DNA of 64,000 nucleotides from Eledone cirrhosa (lineage: Eukaryota), in assembly GCA_964016885.1 (NCBI GenBank), contig OZ024740.1, forward strand, positions 356,066,001 through 356,130,000. The letters run 5' to 3'. This document shows positions 5,216-52,652 of the stretch, in pieces. The notes under the pieces are model-generated. The model was not told the DNA's origin. It saw only the letters and a list, made by a program, of their open reading frames with translations, and ran no database searches. The stretch's first letter is position 1. Each line of letters opens with the position of its first letter. The position numbers and the translations under genes are program-made.

Positions 5216-6034
5216 TATGTTACTCTGGCTCTTAAAGGGGTTATAAACAAATAATTCTTTCAAGTTGATTCATCTATTTTTTTAAAATTATTTTATTATC
5301 AGTATACTTTATTGGGTGACCACAGCCACATTATTTCTATCACTATCATATTGGTGGGATTTGTAAGTGAGATATATTATAGAGAAACAGTCAATGTGTG
5401 AATGTAGACTTGTGCTGGATAAAAGATATCACCAGGTTTCTATGCCAGTCAGAAACTGAAACATCAAAATCCTTTTGATGGCAGGTATTTCAAAAGCCAA
5501 AAACAAAACATTGTTTACTTTTAAACACCCACCTGACGACAAAGCATTGAGTAACTGTTACATAATGACATTGTGGTGACTATAAAATGTACATAACAGC
5601 TGTGATGTAATAAACTGAAGTTGAATATGTAAAATTGTTCAAAACATTAAAACTCTTATTAACATGCTATTGATATTAACATGCTACTCATAACATAGTT
5701 CTCAGGTAAATTCAGCATGACTTCTTCCTATTATATCAACTGTTAAACTAATATATATCTTTATTCTAATGTATCACTTTGCCGTGTTGTTTATCATTTC
5801 ACTTTTTGCATACATATATATATATAAATACTTACAAGGACACCCTAAATTCATTGTGTTCCTACATCTTCCTGAAACTGGATCACTAGACTTTTTCCAT
5901 TACTTTTTGCATTCTCTTTTCATCATTATCTCACTATTCTTTTTCCTTGTCACTCAGTTACCTTCCCTTACTCCATTTCTTCCTCTTCTCAATCTCGTCT
6001 ATTTTTCTATTTCTTCTCTTATTTCTCATTCTAT

Positions 6035-10779: not shown

Positions 10780-12507
10780 AAACTATAGAGGTATAAAGCT
10801 GATGGACCAGGTCATGAAAGTAACAGAAAGAGTTATAGCACAGTTGATTAGGGACCGGGTGAAACTAGATGAGATGCAATTTGGGTTTATGCCAGGAAGA
10901 GGCACCACAGATGCCCTCTTCCTTGTGAGGAAAAGTACCTAGCTAAAAGTAAGCCACTCTACCTGGCATTCGTCGGTCTCGAGAAAGCCATTGACAGAGT
11001 TCCCCGTGCTATAATCTGGTGGGCTCTTAGAAAACTAGGAGTAGATGAATGGCTTGTGAAAGCTGTACAAGCCATGTATAGGAGAGCAGTCAGCAAAGTT
11101 AGGATTAGCAATGACTATAGCGAGGAATTTAGCGTACAGGTCGGTGTCCACCAGGGCTCTGTTCTTAACCCTCTCCTGTTCATCATAGTCCTGCAGGCTA
11201 AACGGAAGAGTTTAAGACCGGAGGCCCATGGGAATTCCTGTATGCAGATGACTTCGCACTTATAGCTGAATCTATGGTAGAACTAGAGAAGAAATTCCAA
11301 ACTTGGAAGCAGGGACTAGAAAGAAAGGGTCTCAAAGTCAACCTGACAAAGACTAATGTCCTTGTAAGTAGACTAGAAAATAGAACCCAGATCCCCTCAG
11401 GGAAATGGCCTTGCTCAGTATGTAGGAAACGTGTAGGTAGGAACTCCATTCTCTGCCCCAAATGCAAACAATGGGTACACAAGAAATGTAGATGGATCTT
11501 AGGAAGCTTAACTAAGAATGTAGGCTTCACATGTAGCAGCTGTGCTGGGACAGCAAGCAGCAAACGGCCACAGGAAACAAGTACCACCAAACTCTGAGAG
11601 GGCTCTGTAGAAACAGTAGACAGCTTCCGCTACTTAGGTGACCAAATTAGCAGCGAAGGTGGGTGTTCGGAAAGTACAATAACTAGGGTAAGAACGGGAT
11701 TGAAGAAGTTTAGGGAGCTACTGCCACTGCTAGCTACAAAAGGTTTTTCCCTCAAAATGAAAGGCAGATTGTATGATGCATGCATACAAGTAGCAATGTT
11801 ACATGGTAGTAAGACCTGGGCGCTGTCTGTGGAAGACTTGCGTAGATTAGAAAGAAACGAAGCCTGCATGATCCGATGGATGTGTAATGCGCGAACGGCA
11901 AAGCATAAATGAATTGAGAGAGAGACTGAGCATAAGAGGAATCAAATACTGCGTGCAGGAGAGGTGGTTGCATTGGTATGGACATGAGATGCGTATGAAG
12001 GATGATAGCTGCATAAAAAGGTGCAGAGCACTAGAAGTCGATGGAAGCCGCAGAGTGGGGAGACCCAAGAAGACCTGGGTTGAGGTGATAAAAGCCAACC
12101 TAACCCAATTACACCTCTCAAAGGTGATGACACACGACCGTGACCTCTGGCGTGACGCAGTAATACAGAGTACCCGACCCCCCACGAGTACAAGCCGAAG
12201 CTGAAGCATATATACAATATGCCCTCACACCCTCCCACTGCAAAGTGGTCATGGAGGTGCCATGGTAAAAAAGCACCCAGCCCACACTGTAAAGTGGACG
12301 TATAGGCGCCACAGAAAAAAGCACCCAGCACACACTGTAAATGAGGTTGGTGTTAGGAAGGGCATCCAGCTGTAGAAATCAAGCCAGAATCAGTTCTCGT
12401 ATGAGCAAGGCATGGTCTGCTGACCGGACACTGCCGACAACAGTACAACCCGTCTAACCCATGCTAGCGTGGAAGAACGGACGTAAAACGGTGATGATGA
12501 TGATGAT
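10779..12507 (+). mobile_element. 5'-truncated RTE-clade LINE (RT pseudogene + 3' UTR + (GAT)n tail)
   Basis: NYRGIKLMDQ, QVGVHQGSVLNPLLF, YADD (frameshifted), C-x2-C finger and VGRPKKTW motifs with stops and frameshifts. Close relative of 50506-52492. Confidence 0.95.
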
Positions 12508-16177: not shown

Positions 16178-16444
16178 TATATACATATACAACTTTTGCT
16201 AACATGGAAATAGGACGTTAAATGATGATGATGAGAATGTTGATGCTGATGTTAATAATGATGTTGATGATGATATGTATATATGTCTGAGCACGTGTAA
16301 GTATGTATGTGTGTGTTTGTATGGGTGAAAATATCTAATACTGCAAGGAAGAATATTGTTTCACTTGTTGCCTAGGTGACAGCAGAGGTCAGAATGAGAT
16401 TGCAGCTGTGCTTCCTTGTGAAGATTCTGTATTTTATATAACTA

Positions 16445-16487
16445 CACTCACACACACACACACACACATAGCACACATATACATACA

Positions 16488-16522
<35 letters not shown>

Positions 16523-16539
16523 GCACACATACACATACA

Positions 16540-16575
<36 letters not shown>

Positions 16576-17860
16576 TACACATACACTTACACACACACAC
16601 GCACACACACACACACACACATACACACACACATACACTCACATACACACACACACATACACACACATACACTTACATACACACACACTCACACACACAC
16701 ACATACACTCACACACACACACACTCACACACACACACTCACACACACACACGCATACACACACATACACTTACACACACACACTGACACTGACACACAC
16801 ACACACCCACCCACACACATACACACACAGACATACACTTACACACACACTCACACACACACACACACACACTTACACACGCACACACACACTTACACAC
16901 ACACACACATACACTTACACACACACACTCTCACACACCCACCCACACACCCACACACTCACACACATACATACACACACACACATACACATACACACAC
17001 ATACACTCACACACACACATACACACACATACACACACATACACTTACACACACACACACACTCACACACATACACACACATACACACACACACACACTG
17101 ACACACACACATACACACACACTCACACACACATACACACACCTACACTTACACACACACACACTCACACACACATACACTCACACACACACACACACAC
17201 ACACATACACACACATACACTCACACACACACATACACTCACACACACACACATACACTTACACACACACACACTCACACGCACACATACACACACATAC
17301 ACTCACACACACACACACACATACACACACACACATACGCACACACACGCTCACCCACACACACATACACACACACGCACTCACACACACACATACACAC
17401 ACATACACTCACACACTCACACAGACTCACACTCACACATACATACACATGCACTCACACACACTCACACACACACACTCACTCACACACTTACACACAC
17501 ACACACACTCATACACACACACACTCACATACGCACACACACACACTCACACACTCACACACTTACACACACACACACACACTCACACACACTCACACAC
17601 TTACACACTTACATACATGCACACAAACATACATACGCACGTACACGTTCACACACATAAACACACACGCACACACACACACTCACACACTTGCACACTT
17701 ACACACATGGACACAAACATACATACGCACGTACACGTTCACAGACATAAACACACACACACACACTCACACACTTACACACTCACAGACACACTTACAC
17801 ACATGCACACAAACATACATACGCACGTACACGTTCACACACACACACATACGCACATAC
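16445..17860. repeat. ~1.4-kb degenerate (CA)n microsatellite
   Basis: Continuous CA/CACT/CATA repeats. Confidence 0.95.
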
Positions 17861-17982
17861 ATATATATATATTATATAACTATACACACATAAATACATT
17901 AGTACATATATAACTATACACATACATATAAATACATTAGTATATATATATTTTCTAAAACTATTTACACTCACTCACACAT

Positions 17983-18250
17983 ATATACATACATATATTT
18001 TATATACCTACATACATAGACATATATACACTAGTACATATATTTTATAGAACTACATGCATACATATATTTTATATACCTACATACATACATATATTTT
18101 ATATACCTACATACATACATATATTTTATATACCTACATACATACATATATTTTATATACCTACATACATACATATATTTTATATACCTACATACATACA
18201 TATATTTTATATACCTACATACATACATATATTTTATATGCCTACATACA
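17983..18250. repeat. 27-bp minisatellite (atatattttatatacctacatacatac)
   Basis: About 7 or more tandem units; 9-aa periodicity in the ORF track. Confidence 0.9.
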
Positions 18251-18570
18251 TAGACATATATACACTAGTACATATATTTTATAGAACTACATGCATACAC
18301 ACACATACATTAATACATATATTTTATAGGACTCCACACACACACACTCCCTCTTTCTCTCACATACACACTCTCTCTCTCTCTTTCTCTCTCTCACACA
18401 CACACTCTCTCTCATACACACACTCTCTCTCTCCCACACACACACTCTCTCTCTCCCACACACACATGTTACTACATATAGCACACTAGTCAGTATAAGA
18501 GACAAAGAAGGAAGAGAATTGGTAACTAAGGAAGATTTCTCAGGGGTGTAAAGTATGGCATGAAAGAAAG

Positions 18571-21500
18571 GTGTAGTGGTAGTGGTGGTGGTGTAGTGGT
18601 AGTGTAGGCTGTAGTGGTAGTGGTGGTGGTGTAGTGGTAGTGTAGGCTGTAGTGGTAGTGGTGGTGGTGTTAGGGGTGGTGTAGGCTGTAGTGGTGGTGG
18701 TGGTGTAGTGGTAGTGTAGGCTGTAGTGGTAGTGGTGGTGGTGTAGTGGTAGTGTAGGCTGTAGTGGTAGTGGTGGTGGTGTTAGGGGTAGTGTAGGCTG
18801 TAGTGGTAGTGGTGGTGGTGTTAGGGGTGGTGTAGGCTGTAGTGGTGGTGGTGGTGTAGTGGTAGTGTAGGCTGTAGTGGTAGTGGTGGTGGTGTAGTGG
18901 TAGTGTAGGCTGTAGTGGTAGTGGTGGTGGTGTTAGGGGTGGTGTAGGCTGTAGTGGTAGTGGTGTTAGGGGTGGTGTAGGCTGTAGTGGTGGTGGTGGT
19001 GTAGTGGTAGTGTAGGCTGTTTAGTGGTATTGGTGGTGGTGTTAGGGGTGGTGTAGGCTGTAGTGGTAGTGGTGGTGGTGTTAGGGGTGGTGTAGGCTGT
19101 AGTGGTAGTGGTGGTGGTGTTAGGGGTGGTGTAGGCTGTAGTGATAGTGGTGGTGGTGTAGTGGTAGTGTAGGCTGTAGTGGTAGTGGTGTTAGGGGTGG
19201 TGTAGGCTGTAGTGGTAGTGTAGGCTGTAGTGGTAGTGGTGGTGGTGTTAGGGGTGGTGTAGGCTGTAGTGGTAGTAGTGGTGGTGTTAGGGGTGGTGTA
19301 GGCTGTAGTGGTCATGGTGGTGGTGTTAGGGGTGGTGTAGGTGGTGTAGTGGTAGTGGTGGTGGTGTTAGGGGTGGTGTAGGTAGTAGTGGTGGTGGTGT
19401 TAGGGGTGGAGTAGGCTGTAGTGGTAGTGGTGGTGTAGTGGTAGTGTTGGCTGTAGTGGTAGTGTAGGCTGTAGTGGTAGTGGTGGTGGTGTAGTGGTAG
19501 TGTAGGCTGTAGTGGTAGTGGTGGTGGTGTTAGGGGTGGTGTAGGCTGTAGTGGTGGTGGTGGTGTAGTGGTAGTGTTGGCTGTAGTGGTAGTGGTGGTG
19601 GTGTAGTGGTAGTGTAGGCTGTAGTGGTAGTGGTGGTGGTGTTAGGGGTGGTGTAGGCTGTAGTGGTAGTGGTGGTGGTGTAGTTGTAGTGTAGGCTGTA
19701 GTGGTAGTGGTGGCGGTGTTAGGGGTGGTGTAGGCTGTAGTGGTAGTGGTGGTGGTGTAGTTGTAGTGTAGGGTGTAGTGGTAGTGGTGGTGGTGTAGTT
19801 GTATTGTAGGCTGTAGTGATAGTGGTGGTGGTGTAGTGGTAGTGTAGGCTGTAGTGGTAGTGGTGGTGGTGTAGTTGTAGTGTAGGCTGTAGTGGTAGTG
19901 GTGGTGGTGTAGTTGTAGTGTAGGCTGTAGTGGTAGTGGTGGTGGTGTAGTGGTAGTGTAGGCTGTAGTGGTAGTGGTGGTGGTGTTAGGGGTGATGTAG
20001 GCTGTAGTGGTAGTGGTGGTGGTGTAGTGGTAGTGTAGGCTGTAGTGGTAGTGGTGGTGGTGTAGTTGTAGTGTAGGCTGTAGTGATAGTGGTGGTGGTG
20101 TAGTGGTAGTGTAGGCTGTAGTGGTAGTGGTGGTGGTGTAGTGGTAGTGTAGGCTGTAGTGGTGGTGGTGTTAGGGGTGGTGTAGGCTGTAGTGGTAGTA
20201 GTGGTGGTGTTAGGGGTGGTGTAGGCTGTAGTGGTCATGGTGGTGGTGTTAGGGGTGGTGTAGGTGGTGTAGTGGTAGTGTAGGTTGTAGTAGTAGTGGT
20301 GGTGGTGTTAGGGGTGGTGTAGGGAGTAGTGGTGGTGGTGTTAGGGGTGGAGTAGGCTGTAGTGGTAGTGGTGGTGGTGTAGTGGTAGTGTAGGTTGTAG
20401 TGGTAGTAGTGGTGGTGTAGTGGTAGTGTAGGCTGTAGTGGTAGTGGTGGTGGTGTTAGGGGTGGTGTAGGCTGTAGTGGTGGTGGTGGTGTAGTGGTAG
20501 TGTTGGCTGTAGTGGTAGTGGTGGTGGTGTAGTGGTAATGTAGGCTGTAGTGGTAGTGGTGGTGGTGTAGTGGTAGTGTAGGCTGTAGTGGTAGTGGTGG
20601 TGGTGTTAGGGGTGGTGTAGGCTGTAGTGGTAGTGGTGGTGGTGTTAGGGGTGGTGTAGGCTGTAGTGGTGGTGGTGGTGTAGTGGTAGTGTTGGCTGTA
20701 GTGGTAGTGGTGGTGGTGTAGTGGTAATGTAGGCTGTAGTGGTAGTGGTGGTGGTGTAGTGGTAGTGTAGGCTGTAGTGGTAGTGGTGGTGGTGTTAGGG
20801 GTGGAGTAGGCTGTAGTGGTAGTGGTGGTGGTGTAGTGGTAGTGTAGGCTGTAGTGGTAGTGGTGGTGGTGTTAGGGGTGGTGTAGGCTGTAGTGGTAGT
20901 GGTGGTGGTGTAGTTGTAGTGTAGGCTGTAGTGGTAGTGGTGGTGGTGTAGTGGTAGTGTAGGCTGTAGTGGTAGTGGTGGTGGTGTTAGGGGTGGTGTA
21001 GGCTGTAGTGGTAGTGGTGGTGGTGTAGTTGTAGTGTAGGCTGTAGTGGTAGTGGTGGTGGTGTAGTGGTAGTGTAGGCTGTAGTGGTAGTGGTGGTGGT
21101 GTAGTTGTAGTGTAGGCTGTAGTGGTAGTGGTGGTGGTGTTAGGGGTGGTGTAGGCTGTAGTGGTAGTGGTGGTGGTGTAGTTGTAGTGTAGGCTGTAGT
21201 GGTAGTGGTGGTGGTGTAGTGGTAATGTAGGCTGTAGTGGTAGTGGTGGTGGTGTTAGGGGTGGTGTAGGCTGTAGTGGTAGTGGTGGTGGTGTAGTTGT
21301 AGTGTAGGCTGTAGTGGTAGTGGTGGTGGTGTAGTTGTAGTGTAGGCTGTAGTGGTAGTGGTGGTGGTGTTAGGGGTGGTGTAGGCTGTAGTGGTAGTAG
21401 TGGTGGTGTTAGGGGTGGTGTAGGCTGTAGTGGTAGTGGTGGTGGTGTAGTGGTAGTGTAGGCTGTAGTGGTAGTGGTGGTGGTGTTAGGGGTGGTGTAG

Positions 21501-23640
21501 GCTGTAGTGGTATTGGTGGTGGTGTTAGGGGTGGAGTAGGCTGTAGTGGTAGCAGTGGTGGTGTAGTGGTAGTGTAGGCAGTAGTGGTAGTGGTGGTGGT
21601 GTTAGGGGTGGTGTAGGCTGTAGTGGTAGTGGTGGTGGTGTAGTGGTAGTGTAGGCTGTAGTGGTAGTGGTGGTGGTGTTAGGGGTGGTGTAGGCTGTAG
21701 TGGTAGTGGTGGTGGTGTAGTGGTAGTGTAGGCTGTAGTGGTAGTGTAGGCTGTAGTGGTAGTGGTGGTGGTGTTAGGGGTGGTGTAGGCTGTAGTGGTA
21801 GTGGTGGAGGTGCTAGGGGTGGTGTAGGCTGTAGTGTTAGTGGTGGTGGTGTAGTGGTAGTGTAGGCTGAAGTGGTAGTGGTGGTGGTGTTAGGGGTGGT
21901 GTAGGCTGTAGTGGTAGTGGTGGTGGTGTTAGGGGTGGTGTAGGCTGTAGTGTTAGTGGTGGTGGTGTAGTGGTAGTGTAGGCTGAAGTGGTAGTGGTGG
22001 TGGTGTTAGGGGTGGTGTAGGCTGTAGTGGTATTGGTGGTGGTGTAGTGGTAGTGTAGGCTGTAGTGGTAGTGGTGGTGGTGTAGTGGTAGTGTAGGCTG
22101 TAGTGGTAGTGGTGGTGATGTTAGAGGTGGTGTAGGCTGTAGTGGTAGTGGTGGTGGTGTAGTTGTAGTGTAGGCTGTAGTGGTAGTGGTGGTGGTGTTA
22201 GGGGTGGTGTAGGCTGTAGTGGTATTGGTGGTGGTGTAGTGGTAGTGTAGGCTGTAGTGGTAGTGGTTGTGATGTTAGAGGTGGTGTAGGCTGTAGTGGT
22301 AGTGGTGGTGGTGTAGTGGTAGTGTAGGCTGTAGTGGTAGTGGTGGTGGTGTTAGGGGTGGTGTAGGCTGTAGTGGTAGTGGTGGTGGTGTTAGGGGTGG
22401 TGTAGGCTGTAGTGGTAGTGGTGGTGGTGTAGTGGTAGTGTAGGCTGTAGTGGTAGTGGTTGTGATGTTAGAGGTGGTGTAGGCTGTAGTGGTATTGGTG
22501 GTGGTGTAGTGGTAGTGTAGGCTGTAGTGGTAGTGGTGGTGGTGTTAGGGGTGGTGTAGGCTGTAGTGGTAGTGGTGGTGGTGTAGTGGTAGTGTAGGCT
22601 GTAGTGGTAGGGGTGATGGTGTTAGGGGTGGTGTAGGCTGTAGTGGTAGTGGTGTTGGTGTTAGGGGTGGTGTAGGCTGTAGTGGTTGTGGTGGTGGTGT
22701 TAGGGGTGGTGTAGGCTGTAGTGGTAGTGGTTGTGATGTTAGAGGTGGTGTAGGCTGTAGTGGTATTGGTGGTGGTGTAGTGGTAGTGTAGGCTGTAGTG
22801 GTAGTGGTGGTGGTGTTAGGGGTGGTGTAGGCTGTAGTGGTAGTGGTGGTGGTGTAGTGGTAGTGTAGGCTGTAGTGGTAGGGGTGATGGTGTTAGGGGT
22901 GGTGTAGGCTGTAGTGGTTGTGGTGGTGGTGTTAGGGGTGGTGTAGGCTGTAGTGGTAGTGGTGGTGGTGTTAGGGGTGGTGTAGGCTGTAGTGGTAGTG
23001 GTTGTGATGTTAGAGGTGGTGTAGGCTGTAGTGGTATTGGTGGTGGTGTAGTGGTAGTGTAGGCTGTAGTGGTAGTGGTGGTGGTGTTAGGGGTGGTGTA
23101 GGCTGTAGTGGTAGTTATGGTGGTGTTAGTGGTAGTGGTGGTGATGTTAGGGGTAGTGTAGGCTGTAGTGGTAGTGATGGTGCTGTTAGGGGTGGTGTAG
23201 GCTGTAGTGGTAGTGGTGGTGGTGTTAGGGGTAGTGTAGGCTGTAGTGGTAGTGATGGTGGTGTTAGTGGTAGTGGTGGTGATGTTAGGGGTAGTGTAGG
23301 CTGTAGTGGTAGTGATGGTGCTGTTAGGGGTGGTGTAGGCTGTAGTGGTAGTGGTGGTGGTGTTAGGGGTAGTGTAGGCTGTAGTGGTAGTGAAGGTGGT
23401 GTTAGTGGTAGTGGTGGTGATGTTAGGGGTAGTGTAGGCTGTAGTGGTAGTGATGGTGCTGTTAGGGGTGGTGTAGGCTGTAGTGGTAGTGGTGGTGCTG
23501 TTAGGGGTAGTGTAGGCTGTAGTGGTAGTGATGGTGGTGTTAGTGGTAGTGGTGGTGATGTTAGGGGTAGTGTAGGCTGTAGTGGTAGTGATGGTGGTGT
23601 TAGTGGTAGTGGTGGTGATGTTAGGGGTAGCGTAGGCTGT
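18571..23640. repeat. ~5-kb G-rich 38/39-bp minisatellite
   Basis: Units gtaggctgtagtggtagtggtggtggt followed by either gtagtggtagt (38 bp) or gttaggggtggt (39 bp). Confidence 0.95.
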
Positions 23641-25250
23641 AGTGGTAGTGGTGTTAGTGGTAGTGGTGGTGATGTTAGTGGTAATGGTGGAGATGAATTT
23701 TGTGGTGGTGATGGTAGTGATGGTGATGAATGTTGTGGTGCTGGTGGTAGTGGTAGTGATGATTGTTGTGGTGGTGGTGGTAGTGGTAGTGGTGGTGATG
23801 AATGTTGTGGTGGTGGTGGTAGTGGTAGTGGTGGTGATGATTGTTGTGGGGTGGTGGTAGTGGTAGTGGTGGTGATGATTGTTGTGGTGGTGGTGTTAGT
23901 GGTAGTGGTGGTGATGATTGTTGTGGGGGTGGTAGTGGTCGTGATGATTGTTGTGGGGGTGGTAGTGGTGGTGATGGTTGTTGTGGGGGTGGTAGTGGTG
24001 GTGATGGTTGTTGTGAGGGTGGTAGTGGTGGTGATGATTGTTGTGGTGGTGGTAGTGGTGGTGATGATTGTTGTGGGGGTGGTAGTGGTCGTGATGGTTG
24101 TTGTGGGGTGGTAGTGGTGGTGATGATTGTTGTGGGGGTGGTGGTAGTGGTAGTGGTGGTGGTGTTATTGGTGGTGGTAGTGGTAGTGGTGGTGATGAAT
24201 GTTGTGGTTGGGGGTGTTAGTGGTAGTGGTGGTAGTGGTAGTGGTGGTGGTGTTAGTGGTAGTGGTGGTGATGATTGTTGTGGTGGTGGTAGTGGTAGTG
24301 GTGGTGATGAATGTTGTGGTTGGGGGTGTTAGTGGTAGTGGTGGTGGTGATTGTTGTGGGGGTGGTGGTAGTGGTAGTGGTGGTGGTGTTAGTGGTGGTG
24401 GTAGTGGTAGTGGTGGTGATGAATGTTGTGGTTGGGGGTGTTAGTGGTAGTGGTGGAGGTGATTGTTGTGGGGGTGGTGGTAGTGGTGGTGATGATTGTT
24501 GTGGTGTAGGCTGAAGTGGTAGTGGTGGTGATGATTGTTGTGGTAGTGGTAGTGGTGGTGATGTTTGTTGTGGTAGTGGTAGTGGTGGTGATGTTTGTTG
24601 TGGTAGTGGTAGTGGTGGTGATGTTTGTTGTGGTAGTGATGACTGTTGTTGTGGTAGTGGTAGTGGTGGTGATGAATGTTGTGGTAGGTGGTGTTAGTAG
24701 TAGTGGTGGTGATGGTAGTGGTAGTGGTGTTGATGATAGTTGTGGTGGTGGTGGTAGTGGTAGTGATGATTGTTGTGGTGGTGGTTGAGGATGTAATGAT
24801 GGTGTTGGTGGTGATGGTAGTGGCGTTGATGGTAGTGGTGGTTGTGGTAATGGTGGTGGTTGTAATGATGCTGTTAGTGTTGGTGGTAGTGTTGTTGATG
24901 GTAGTAGTATCAATTGTAGTGGTTTCGGTGGTAGTGGTGGTGTTGGTATCAGTGGTTGTGATGTTGGTGGTGATGGTAATGTTGGTAGGAGTACTGTTAG
25001 TGTTAGTGGTTTTTGTAGTGGTGGTGTTGGTGGTAGAGATGTTGGTGGTAGTGGTGGTGGTGGTAATGGTGATGGTGGGAATGGTGATGGTGCGAATGGT
25101 GTTAGTGGTAAGGGTGTTAGTGGTAGTGGTGTTGGTCATGGTGTTGTTGGTTGTAGTGGTATTGGTGGTGGTGATGTTGGTAGTAGTGTTGTTAGTGGTA
25201 GTGGTGTTGCTGGTAGTGGTGTTAATGGTAGTGGTGATGGTGGCTGGGAT
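23641..25250. repeat. Degenerate (GGT/GTT/GAT)n trinucleotide repeat region
   Basis: Poly-Val/Gly/Thr translations; continuous with the minisatellite. Confidence 0.9.
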
Positions 25251-25536
25251 GTAGATAAACAGAACTGATGAGGCAGTGATGGGGAGGGAGGTGAAGTGAA
25301 AGGCTGATAGACAAGATAAAAGAAACAAATAAATAAATGATTTTAGAATAAATATAAATAAAAAAATAGAAAATAAAAACTGAAATGAAGTTCTTATCAG
25401 ATCAACATGTTTGGATAGAAAATAAATTTTGTTTTACTTTAGTCTGTCTATCTATTTGTCTGTCTGTCTTTCTGACTGCCTGTCTGTCCATATGTCTATT
25501 TATCTATCTATCTATGTCTGTCTACATGTCTGTCTG

Positions 25537-26637
25537 CTGATGCCTAAACACGCATTAAGACTACGGCACCTCCAGGTATTCCTCACCGGTCAACCGGTGT
25601 GGGCCCCGTTTGTGAGACGAACCTTTCCGAGACTCATCTCACTCACCGAGCTGCAATCCTGTGTCAAGCAAAGGCCGAGAAAACTGGGCGCCTGGCGCAC
25701 AAAGTGTTCCCAGGCGCTCACGGCTCTCTGGCAGGCGGACCTGCTATCAGTAGAGACTCCACCTCGACATTCTATAGAGGGCTGGTGCACAGCAGGTGTG
25801 ACGATGCCTTCGGAGAAGACCTAGACATGGAGGAAGACGAACTGGCCAGCCTGTTAGGTAGGACATTTAGCCCGGGACCTATGGACAACTTCCAGAGGTC
25901 CCTGACCTGGCCGTGCTACCGAGGGGCTCTACCCGTTCGAGAAAAGCTCTACAGACACGGGTGCCCGGGTAGGGACCCCTCGAAAAAGATCTGTCCCAGA
26001 TGTGTACGCAACAAGGAAACTGTTGCGCATGCATTGGTACACTGCCCGGGCGTTGCCGATCTGTGGGGCTATGTCGAACAACTGCTGTCACGGGTGGAAC
26101 CTATCTGGTTGACCACCGAGTCCATTATAATGATCAAGCCGCCTCGCCCCTTCAAAAATGCAGGAGAGGCGGTGTTTCTGTGGGTAATAGCCATGGTGAA
26201 AGAGGTTGTATGGTGGACGCATTTGAAAGGGCTGGGGTCTGGCACCTTTCTCTCTGGCCAACAACTGGTCCTTTTCTTCCGATATCATTTCGGAAGAAGG
26301 ATCAGGATGGAGAGAGAGGTGCTCCACCCCAGCCAGTTTTATGAAAGATGGGTGAAAGTGGCGAGAATGGCCCGTGTGAATGGGCCTTCTCTTTATATCA
26401 GCCTGTAGGTGAAAAAGATGGAAGAACAAGGGAGCACCCTGTCTCTGTATTCCTGAGGAGAAGGGTTGCACACTTTTTCGGGGGTGTGTGCAACCCCCCA
26501 AAACGCCTCCTCCCTATTGAGGACTGTATTGTTAATTTTATATTTGTTATTTGTTTTTTACTCGTTCTTTTTTGTAAACCCCCCCCCCCCCATGTATTTG
26601 TCCCCTTCTTTTGTGCCCTCGTGGCAATAAATAGAAA
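25537..26637 (+). mobile_element. 5'-truncated L1/Tx1-clade LINE (C-terminal zf-RVT region + 3' UTR)
   Basis: HALRLRHL, then ALPVREKLYRHG...CPRC-x4-ETVAHALVHC (CCHC zinc knuckle typical of the L1/Tx1 ORF2 C-terminus). GC-rich island ending in aataaatagaaa, embedded in TCTA/TCTG repeats. Confidence 0.85.
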
Positions 26638-40292: not shown

Positions 40293-40545
40293 ATATTGTT
40301 ATGCTTTGAGAGGGTCATGTTGCCAATAAGAAACATACGCACCAGTTGCTTTCACTTCAATTTATTATAAATTAAGGAATTTATAAATTTCCGGTTGAAC
40401 ATTCGTGTGATTGTGGAACCAACCAACCAACCGGAAATTTATAAATTCCTTAATTTATAAATTTAATTTATAATAAATTGAAGTGAAAGCAATTGGTGCG
40501 TGTGTTTCTTATTGGCAACATGACCCTCCCAAAGCATAACAATAT
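40293..40545. repeat. ~105-bp-arm palindrome homologous to 33571-33660
   Basis: attgttatgctttgagagggtcatgttgccaataagaaac...ccggttg pairs with caaccgg...gtttcttattggcaacatgaccctcccaaagcataacaat. Confidence 0.9.
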
Positions 40546-40601: not shown

Positions 40602-40636
<35 letters not shown>

Positions 40637-40736
40637 CATAAATACATATATATATATATAAAAGTAGCGAAGCAAGCGGTTATTAAACAATTTTCTAAAT
40701 AAATTAAAAAATGATTAAATAATCACCTGTTCAGAC

Positions 40737-40817
40737 GCTGTTACCGACGGTTTCATCATTCCGAAAGATTGAAAATCCAACGAATTTCCAATGGAAAGAA
40801 ATGAATCTTCAGACAGC
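40737..40817 (-). ncRNA. Type-I hammerhead ribozyme motif (left arm)
   Basis: Reverse complement of the 41026-41106 motif. Confidence 0.7.
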
Positions 40818-41025
40818 CCTATTTCCATGCCATAAGGTATCAAGCCTAATAGCAAGTAAATATTATGCTAATTTTAGTGGCAATTCGACATGTTTATAAT
40901 ATGCCGCTTTTATCAGCGACCTGATTATGCATGTGTGTCATTTTAACGGCTTGACCGCATGCGTTGGGCAGGGAGCATAATATTTACTTGCTATTAGGCT
41001 TGATACCTTATGGCGTGGAAATAGG

Positions 41026-41106
41026 GCTGTCTGAAGATTCATTTCTTTCCATTGGAAATTCGTTGGATTTTCGATCTTTCGGAATGATGAAACCGTCGGT
41101 AACAGC
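41026..41106 (+). ncRNA. Type-I hammerhead ribozyme motif (right arm)
   Basis: gctgt-CTGAAGA-t-tcatttc(...)ggaatga-t-GAAA-cc(gtc)gg-TA-acagc. Perfect 5-bp stem I; predicted cleavage after 41101. Confidence 0.7.
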
Positions 41107-41285
41107 ATCTGAACAGGTGATTATTTAATCATTTTTTAATTTATTTAGAAAATTATTTAATAACCGCTTGCTTCGCTACTTTTATATTGTTCTGGTATCT
41201 CGAATTAGTGCCATTGAACCACATGTATTATAAATAACTTGAATATTTCTACAAGTACATTGTACCTGTTGAAGTATCCATCCAC

Positions 41286-42468
<1,183 letters not shown>

Positions 42469-45947: not shown

Positions 45948-46014
45948 TATTTTATCTGATGAGGACGTACTGTTGAAGTTAACTCAGTACCTCTGAAATA
46001 TGTATAATAAAATA
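45948..46014 (+). ncRNA. Type-I hammerhead ribozyme motif
   Basis: tattttat-CTGATGA-ggacgtactg(...)cagtacctct-GAAA-tatgta-TA-ataaaata; perfect 8-bp stem I. Confidence 0.75.
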
Positions 46015-50505: not shown

Positions 50506-52488
50506 TCATCATCATCATCATCACCGTTTTACGTCCGTTCTTCCACGCTAGCATGGGTTAGACGGGTTGTCCTGTTGTGGGCAGTGTCTGGTCGGCTGAC
50601 CATGCCTTGCTCATACAGGAACTGATCTGGCTTGATTTCTACAGCTGGATGCCCTTCCTAACACCAACCTCATTTACAGTGAGTGCTGGGTGCTTTTTCG
50701 TGGCGCCTACACGTCCACTTTACAGTGTGGGCTGGGTGCTTTTTTGCCGTGGCACCTCCACGACCACCTTGCGGTGGGGGGGGGGCATATTGTTTATATG
50801 CTTCAGCATGTACCCATGGGAGGTCGGGTACCCTGTATTACTGCGTGACGCCAGAAGTCACGGTCGTGTGTCATTGACTTTGAGAGGTGTAGTTGGGTAA
50901 GGTCGGCTTTTATCACCTCATCCCAAGTCATCTTGGGTCTCCCCACTCCGCGGTTTCCATCAACTTCTAGTGCTCTGCACCTTTTTATGCAGCTGTCATC
51001 CTTCATACGCATCACATGTCCATACCAGCGTAACCGCCTCTCCTGCACGCAGCATTTGATTCCTCTTATGCTCAGTCTCTCTCTCAATTCATTTATGCTT
51101 TGTCGTTCACGTATATTACTGTTACACATCCATCGGAGCATGCAGGCTTCGTTTCTCTCTAATCTACGTAAGTCTTCCACCTTCAGCGCCCAGGTCTCAC
51201 TACCATGCAACATCGCTGTTCGGATACACGCATCATACAGTCTGCCTTTCATTCTGAGGGAGAAGCCTTTTGCAGCTAGCAGTGGTAGTAGTTCCCTAAA
51301 CTTCTTCCATCCCGTTCTTACCCTAGTTATTGTACTTTCTGAGCACCCACCTCCGTTGCTAATTCGGTCACCTAGGTAGCAGAAGCTGTCTACTGTTTCT
51401 ACAGGGCCCTCCCAGAGATTGGTGGTACTTGTTTCCTGTGGCTGTTTGCTTGCTGTTTCAGCACAGCTGCTGCATGTGAATCCTACATTCTTAATTAAGC
51501 TTCCTGAGATCCCGCTACATCTCTTGTGTACCCATTGTTTGCATTTGGGGCAAAGAATGGAGTTCCTACCTACACCTTTCCTACATACTGAGCAAGGCCA
51601 TTTCCCTGAGGGGATCTGGGTTCTGTTTTCTCGTCTACTTATAAGGACCTTAGTCTTTGTCATGTTGACTTTGAGGCCCTTTCTCTCTAGTCCTTGCTTC
51701 CAGGTTTGGAATTTATTCTCTAGTTCTACCATAGATTCAGCTATGAGTGCGAGGTCATCAGCATACAGGAGTTCCCATGGGCATCCGGTCTTAAACTCCT
51801 CCATTATTACCTGCAGGACTATGATGAACAGGAGAGGGCTAAGAACAGAGCCCTGGTGGACCCCAACCTGTACGCTAAATTCCTCGCTATACTCATTGCC
51901 AATCCTAACTTTGCTGACTGCTCCCCTATACATGGCTTGTACCGCTTTCACAAGCCATTCATCTACTCCTAGTTTTCTAAGAGCCCACCAGATTACTGCA
52001 CGTGGAACTCTGTCAAAGGCTTTCTCAAGGTCGACAAATGCCAAGTAGAGTGGCTTACTTTTAGCTAGGTACTTTTCCTGTAATTGCCTCACAAGGAAGA
52101 GCGCATCAGTGGTGCCTTTCCCTGGTACAAACCCAAATTGCATCTCGTCTATATTCACCCGGTCCCTAATCAGCTGTGCTATAACTCTTTCTGTTACTTT
52201 CATGACCTGGTCCATCAACTTTATACCTCTATAGTTTCCTCTATCTAGTGCATCGCCTTTACCTTTGTAGCAGTTGACAATGATGCTACTGCACCAATCT
52301 TTTGGTATGGCCCCCTCTAGTATTACCTGGTTAACAATACGTGTGGTTATAGTGTGACCTACAGACCCAGATGCCTTCAGCATCTCGGCAGCTATACCCG
52401 ATGGACCGGTTGCCTTCCCTATCTTCATATCTCTGATTGCCTTACTTACTACGCTGCCGCTGACTTGTACTGCTGGTCCCTCTATAGG

Positions 52489-52492
<4 letters not shown>
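50506..52492 (-). mobile_element. Young 5'-truncated RTE-clade LINE flanked by (TA)n
   Basis: Uninterrupted RT ORF, 3' UTR and (GAT)n tail. Homology runs in-frame (DPIEGPAVQVSGSVVSKAIRD) right up to the TA tract. Confidence 0.97.
50803..52428 (-). CDS. RTE retrotransposon reverse transcriptase (N-terminally truncated, no endonuclease) with internal PHD-type zinc finger
   Basis: 541-aa ORF: GKATGPSGIAAEMLK, NYRGIKL, QFGF, FVDLEKAFDRVPR, GVHQGSVLSPLLF, LLYADDLAL, C4HC3 motif, FCYLG, RRLRWYGHVMRM. Confidence 0.9.
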   Translation of the reverse strand: MKIGKATGPSGIAAEMLKASGSVGHTITTRIVNQVILEGAIPKDWCSSIIVNCYKGKGDALDRGNYRGIKLMDQVMKVTERVIAQLIRDRVNIDEMQFGFVPGKGTTDALFLVRQLQEKYLAKSKPLYLAFVDLEKAFDRVPRAVIWWALRKLGVDEWLVKAVQAMYRGAVSKVRIGNEYSEEFSVQVGVHQGSVLSPLLFIIVLQVIMEEFKTGCPWELLYADDLALIAESMVELENKFQTWKQGLERKGLKVNMTKTKVLISRRENRTQIPSGKWPCSVCRKGVGRNSILCPKCKQWVHKRCSGISGSLIKNVGFTCSSCAETASKQPQETSTTNLWEGPVETVDSFCYLGDRISNGGGCSESTITRVRTGWKKFRELLPLLAAKGFSLRMKGRLYDACIRTAMLHGSETWALKVEDLRRLERNEACMLRWMCNSNIRERQSINELRERLSIRGIKCCVQERRLRWYGHVMRMKDDSCIKRCRALEVDGNRGVGRPKMTWDEVIKADLTQLHLSKSMTHDRDFWRHAVIQGTRPPMGTC

Positions 52493-52529
<37 letters not shown>

Positions 52530-52652
52530 CTCATAATTATTTTACTGTTTAGACTTTCTTTTGGAAGTGTTTGTAAACAATAAAAATGGACAGTGCTTAG
52601 TCTGAAGTGTTGTTTACTTCTTAATTGTTGGTTCACTGTGGGGAAGAGTCAA

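Follow-up and report, generated by a model that had tools for sequence, protein, structure and literature searches.

A head-to-head, hammerhead-bearing insertion in Eledone cirrhosa and its probable origin from a non-LTR retrozyme family

What is an inverted repeat that carries a hammerhead motif on each strand and no gene between its arms? The locus lies in a 64,000-nt stretch of the 3.0 Gb Eledone cirrhosa genome; that whole stretch is called the window. A sequence-only reading took the locus for a double-ribozyme cassette of two 213-bp arms around a spacer, arranged like the inverted pLTRs of Penelope-like elements (PLEs). We think it very probable, judging from sequence comparisons, that the locus arose when a 467-bp non-coding repeat bearing a hammerhead was inserted head to head with 5' truncation; the repeat is likely a non-LTR retrozyme that a Penelope-like reverse transcriptase (RT)/endonuclease copied in trans. 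This explanation is based on the monomer, its tandem arrays, (TA)n flanks, two fixed 3' ends, variable junctions and covarying stems. Non-LTR retrozymes are a known kind of non-autonomous PLE, and the data for the family fit.

Structure of the locus

We confirmed the inverted arms and the two hammerhead cores. The arms (40656-40869 and 40974-41187) are each 214 bp long, not 213, with 4 mismatches and 104 bp between them. The element consists of two 5'-truncated monomer pieces, head to head, set within (TA)n. Its parts, in positions of the window, are:

40602..40655, no strand: (TA)n target, left flank
40656..40869, minus strand: left arm, monomer 153-366 by alignment to the monomer, terminating at the "short" 3' end
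40737..40817, minus strand: hammerhead motif, the second of the two, with its cut predicted after 40742
40866..40869, no strand: head-to-head junction, a 4-nt microhomology common to both arms (gap -4)
40866..41288, plus strand: right arm, monomer 45-467, terminating at the "long" 3' end
40870..40973, plus strand: former "spacer", monomer 49-152
41026..41106, plus strand: type I hammerhead motif, predicted cut after 41101 (core 41031-41037; stem II region 41038-41088, 51 nt; GAAA 41089-41092; near-palindromic stem III)
41188..41288, plus strand: 101-bp "tail" separating the short and long 3' ends, on one arm only
41289..41366, no strand: (TA)n target, right flank

Two boundaries had to be redrawn. 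The element had been given an end at 41186, but the right arm runs 101 bp further, to 41288, where (TA)n follows. The stretch between the arms (claimed as ~105 bp) is not a separate part; it is ordinary monomer sequence (positions 49-152) and travels with the right arm, since most genome matches cover positions 210-530 of the query.

As had been noted, there is no ORF. We found no coding frame belonging to the element, in keeping with the lack of protein-coding capacity in retrozymes. Pfam recognized no host exon in the window, just RT-related fragments in 4 of 44 frames. A tblastn search of the window with a 709-amino-acid PLE-like ORF (see below) gave no match, and the RT plus GIY-YIG ORF of an autonomous PLE was not found. 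The whole-window repeat search was dominated by microsatellites.

The full inverted repeat was predicted to fold into a hairpin of -387 kcal/mol, in agreement with the earlier suggestion that a read-through transcript would bury the ribozyme in double-stranded RNA (dsRNA). The locus is predicted to be a dead end because it lacks a complete monomer, has one sense ribozyme per strand, and forms a 214-bp duplex that would mask it. Taken singly, it is a genuine insertion of a retrozyme family but no more than ordinary repeat debris. A variant common to its two arms was considered as a mark private to this locus and rejected, being present in three other loci.

Elsewhere in the window, a TA-flanked palindromic element at 40293-40545 (nested arms of 83 and 33 bp) may be an inverted 3' end from a further family of PLE type. 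Nested inverted repeats lie at 933-1858 (inner arms 132 bp, 99%), and an RT-bearing element with a PHD finger forms an inverted pair (10873-11594 and 50806-52530). Long low-complexity tandem tracts at 16375-26000 have an extreme GC skew, from -0.69 to +0.91.

A monomer family with two 3' ends

The repeat is a non-coding, head-to-tail monomer of 467 bp (natural reference copy, L014:1457-1923) with a tandem period of 457-467 bp, the shorter value being that of a second subfamily. A genome search with the cassette as query gave 1,025 first-look candidates, 40 of which were scored. The core pattern had 579 exact matches in the genome, in solo, tandem and inverted copies. The reversed control had none, so the matches are not due to chance. 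The sequence-only reading had also proposed a search for longer copies with an ORF; inspected copies that extend past the monomer start enter another monomer instead.

The family is inserted at hundreds of TA-microsatellite sites as dispersed, retroposed copies, as expected of non-LTR retrozymes. As a family it also has their short tandem monomers with one type I hammerhead each; the window locus holds no full monomer. The repeat occurs in contigs of the 3 sequencing runs examined (5 were listed, none recorded as RNA), which has no bearing on expression. Sister families gave 1,978 matches to a relaxed pattern (control, 0). Nine natural monomers (457-485 nt) were 45-98% identical, with common blocks beside both end sites. 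One sister retrozyme clade (L180-L219) has monomers of 478-485 nt, a perfect palindromic stem III, and a two-part stem II as in the window family.

We counted 106 distinct insertions (loci L001-L179), 54 inverted and 52 on one strand, a count that skips 10 rows cut by a locus edge and began from a query favoring inverted copies. When non-inverted, non-ribozyme DNA served as the query instead, the inverted share was 12 of 29 distinct loci. TA-rich flanks were present at 47 of the 52 3' ends of one-strand insertions, and at 47/54 left and 46/54 right ends of inverted copies. All 54 inversion-junction rows have distinct coordinates (22 overlap, 3 are blunt, and in 29 there are bases that are inserted or do not align); among the inverted loci, L100 repeats L065, and L168 and L172 resemble one duplicated event. 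Both strands carry a ribozyme in just half of the inverted loci (27 of 54). These results indicate that the double ribozyme is a by-product of insertion and not the conserved cassette that had been proposed.

Copies stop at monomer position 366 (short) or 467 (long), 101 nt apart, and both stops are at TATA merging with (TA)n. One-strand insertions used either end (29 short, 19 long and 4 other; n = 52). Among cleanly classed inverted insertions, 38 of 39 had one short and one long end, one was short/short, and none was long/long (p = 7e-11 against 0.5). Automatic classing failed for the other 15 of the 54; inspected by eye, L065 has two long ends, as many as three may have two short ends, and several pair a short end with a long one. 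Counting all 15 against the rule leaves 38 of 54 (p about 0.002 by hand estimate).

The same pairing was found in the PLE-like family of L132, which has two ends 93 nt apart and in which 23 of 23 inverted copies in fetched loci were short/long. In sister retrozyme families it was found in 7 of 8 inverted copies (by eye, among the matches listed). A retrozyme clade and an autonomous PLE-like family of one genome have a near-strict insertion signature in common, which ties retrozymes to PLE machinery through its footprint and not through co-occurrence.

Two loci (L060 and L061) form a head-to-head monomer array of 12.9 kb (G000:C1:156425693-156438629), whose two strands hold 18 and 9 full units. 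One array end is short and one is long. The units differ by 0.05-0.19% on average, and 22 of 30 pieces are identical. One stem II variant, found on each of the two arms, is absent from all other fetched loci; the array variants are mostly singletons, with one variant pair common to two adjacent units. Across 35 inverted loci, the arms were closest to each other in 11, and in the remaining 24 at least one other locus was equally close. Similar arms could alternatively stem from gene conversion.

The hammerhead motif and its stem II

Both arms carry GCUGU-CUGAAGA-51 nt-GAAA-CCGUCGG-UA-ACAGC, as first described. The motif has the CUGANGA, GAAA and UH core and the three helices of a type I hammerhead, with stem I open. 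The U-U pair said to close stem II is indeed present, at a position (10.1-11.1) where a purine-pyrimidine pair would be expected; the sister families have G-C, G-U, A-U or mismatches there. U-U has been reported among natural hammerheads (PMC3088659, PMC7229834), and axolotl HHR_Amex2 likewise has it at the base of helix II.

Rfam gave no hammerhead match, even at E values up to 10 on the motif alone, likely because of the long stem II. The Rfam matches obtained were microsatellite-driven miRNA hits below the gathering score and were rejected. With 579 and 1,978 pattern matches added together, at least 2,500 hammerhead-like motifs of this genome escape searches of the Rfam type.

For the upper part of stem II, the small 'tttccattggaaa' hairpin suggested earlier is less likely than a single hairpin of 11 bp that sits on an internal loop of pyrimidines. 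We prefer the 11-bp hairpin because it is predicted by the minimum-energy fold under an active-core constraint and because its layout is kept in the sister families. Within the family, pairing in the two alternative upper hairpins was 98.2% and 97.0%, and these counts do not separate them.

We found that the core is conserved. Comparing majority states, the young and old subfamilies are different at 80 of the 467 positions. None of these is among the 32 positions of the core and stems I and III; 10 fall among the 49 inside stem II and 70 among the remaining 386 (0/32 vs 70/386, Fisher p = 0.005, with the old subfamily sampled with non-ribozyme DNA). The sister families keep the core, the palindromic stem III, and a two-part stem II of ~50 nt with compensatory changes. 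Three basal stem II pairs change on both sides within the family (20 chosen sequences), and double changes occur in 10 of 18 stem I/II pairs across the sister families (25 chosen sequences). Stem I/II cells are paired in 92.9% of cases across sisters, compared to 75.5% when shuffled and at most 52.7% when slid; the search pattern fixed the core and stem III and left stems I and II free, and relatedness inflates covariation scores.

Most sister stem IIIs are perfect 10-nt palindromes (predicted self-duplex, -16.6 kcal/mol for one), and that of the window family is a 9-nt near-palindrome (-11.3 kcal/mol). A palindromic stem III fits cleavage as a dimer, as in PMC4209133 and PMC7229834. The lone motif is predicted to misfold: the lowest-energy fold mispairs the core and is favored by 4.9 kcal/mol over the active fold (-25.4 vs -20.5). 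Folded as a circle, the monomer gave a z of -3.6 against 60 shuffles. In one report, no cleavage was seen in 8 of 9 Xenopus retrozyme dimers (10.64898/2026.07.22.740005).

The number of 5' ends at the predicted cut site was 9, compared to 13 (about 6 after subtracting 7 point variants) and 3 at control offsets. The lack of clear enrichment argues against cut linear monomers as the main template and does not distinguish circles from uncut multimers.

Our descriptor scan of the whole window found the two motifs above plus an unrelated one at 45956. This type I motif (45950-46012) has a 32-nt stem II region, a palindrome-like stem III, and relatives in many fetched loci. Stem II regions span 12 to more than 50 nt in the other hammerhead families of the fetched DNA, and several of these have U-U at the base, so neither a long stem II nor U-U is unique in this genome. 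Just 3' of the predicted plus-strand cut, 41107-41150 is a GGT..AG stretch like a very short intron; GGT is present in most of the nine aligned monomers.

Proposed copying route, alternatives and the search for a partner

The family resembles animal non-LTR retrozymes (PMC7229834; 10.64898/2026.07.22.740005) in its non-coding tandem monomer with one type I hammerhead per unit, its GC content of 36%, its short palindromic stem III, and the presence of PLEs in the same genome. Its monomers are 457-485 nt long, compared to 170-400 nt (PMC7229834) and 51-972 bp (10.64898/2026.07.22.740005). Unlike printed retrozymes, it has a ~50-nt two-part stem II region and is known here from DNA alone. About half of its insertions are inverted, whereas the parts of the same two sources that we consulted describe no inversion for retrozymes.

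The insertions resemble those of PLEs (PMC3846280, PMC8557442, PMC11167929) in 5' truncation, head-to-head inversion, microsatellite target, two 3' ends and one-sided tail. Inverted truncated copies with a one-sided tail are described in PLEs (PMC8557442, PMC3846280), the tail being the stretch that separates two RT start sites, with both strands extended (PMC11167929). In contrast to PLE insertions in print, there is no ORF here, and the tail is 101 nt instead of 30-40 nt. Here UAUA is the sequence of each start site and matches the target; in the anole element, the start sites have no homology to the cut DNA. The tail is optional in the printed accounts consulted, whereas pairing is nearly strict here.

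PLE hammerhead variants (PMC4209133) also have a longer-than-usual helix II (6-8 bp), a short helix I, a palindromic helix III, and dual motifs on opposite strands, 100-700 bp apart. By its printed description, the Naiad "HHR_half_core" (PMC8557442), with half cores 35-50 nt apart, is similar. Unlike in either, the long spacing here is a covarying two-helix stem II within a non-coding clade.

We suggest the following route. Tandem copies would be transcribed, and two adjacent hammerheads would pair by their palindromic stem III and then cut. The cut monomers would be ligated into circles. A PLE protein would cleave the (TA)n target, and both DNA ends would prime reverse transcription on one RNA, one at the short site and the other at the long site; both sites have the sequence UAUA, which could anneal to the target. 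The two cDNAs would extend toward one another and be joined via microhomology or a few filler bases.

Another route for the same family is possible but doubtful: unequal crossing-over or long tandem transcripts that stayed uncut might account for the arrays, and fold-back or self-priming, as modeled in PMC3846280, would take the place of two-ended priming on one circle as the source of the inversions. PLE insertion in vitro works without hammerhead cleavage, with uncut RNA as the main substrate (PMC11167929), and this route is also consistent with ends that show no clear pile-up at the predicted cut site and with the variant pair common to two adjacent array units. However, the mostly singleton array variants argue against this route. 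Fold-back predicts arms that start at a near-identical monomer position, but they lie within 15 nt in only about 6 of 54 junction rows, and fold-back alone does not predict the short/long pairing.

It is improbable that the locus is a remnant of two pLTRs from an autonomous PLE whose ORF was lost through truncation. The sequence-only reading was right about the Penelope-type inverted arrangement and the type I hammerhead; inverted pLTRs with a one-sided tail are typical for PLEs (PMC3846280, PMC8557442), and many retrozymes are pLTR-like (10.64898/2026.07.22.740005). Its pLTR pair minus an ORF does not hold, however: in the part of the family sampled, copies beyond monomer position 1 enter position 467 of the next monomer, and the sole ORF close to a sister ribozyme is a chimeric neighbor.

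A selected double-ribozyme regulatory cassette or dsRNA source is very unlikely, in spite of the very stable predicted hairpin and 98% arm likeness, because every junction is different, half of the inverted loci lack the second ribozyme, and Pfam recognized no host exon in the window. An equally small chance attaches to a MITE or foldback DNA transposon inserting at TA, with long terminal inverted repeats, TA flanks and no ORF; the symmetric terminal inverted repeats and uniform length of MITEs were not found, and the asymmetric ends, 52 of 106 insertions on one strand, variable 5' ends, tandem arrays and covarying RNA stems all speak against it.

A broader reading may be offered tentatively. 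The PLE RT might act as a dimer on one RNA, with one subunit per start site, extending both ends of the cut (TA)n together. On a retrozyme circle it might roll for up to about 19 turns, and the short/long rule would be the genomic record. The ~50-nt two-part stem II might be an active hammerhead variant missed by standard descriptors; hammerhead-bearing elements would then be undercounted, and Naiad half cores may be complete ribozymes.

What seems new is at the level of the family: the stem II variant and the near-strict end-pairing rule. Retrozymes (PMC7229834), inverted PLE copies, tails, opposite-strand dual hammerheads and U-U closure are already in print. The literature searched, which included few subscription papers, held no such clade, no two-part 50-nt stem II and no counted short/long rule; relatives may be among the motifs given in the supplements of PMC8557442 and PMC4209133. 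The movement of animal retrozymes and the origin of PLE inversions and tails are stated to be open (PMC7229834, PMC8557442, 10.64898/2026.07.22.740005). The end-pairing rule bears on how PLEs copy RNA and gives a prediction testable by the in vitro PLE assay of PMC11167929.

One family examined as a possible mobilizing partner is the abundant, young PLE-like family with a 709-amino-acid ORF at L132 (2171-5389); its search gave 30,235 first-look candidates, other families included. The name PLE-like comes from DKT, YRDD and YIG motifs, identified by eye using the account of Hydra elements in PMC8557442 and not from a tree; neither Pfam nor PDB recognized the ORF. We found no DNA similarity between the monomer and this family in 50 loci examined, and no autonomous element with monomer sequence among one PLE-like family seen in full and other PLE families seen as fragments. 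ORF fragments near ribozymes were rejected as partners because they are neighbors; the one beside a sister ribozyme, inspected fully, is chimeric. Canonical hammerheads are stated to be always present in Hydra-clade elements (PMC8557442). In the L132 family we found no canonical hammerhead 3' of the ORF; inspection by eye showed a stretch near 5230-5260 that resembles the core but for one base.
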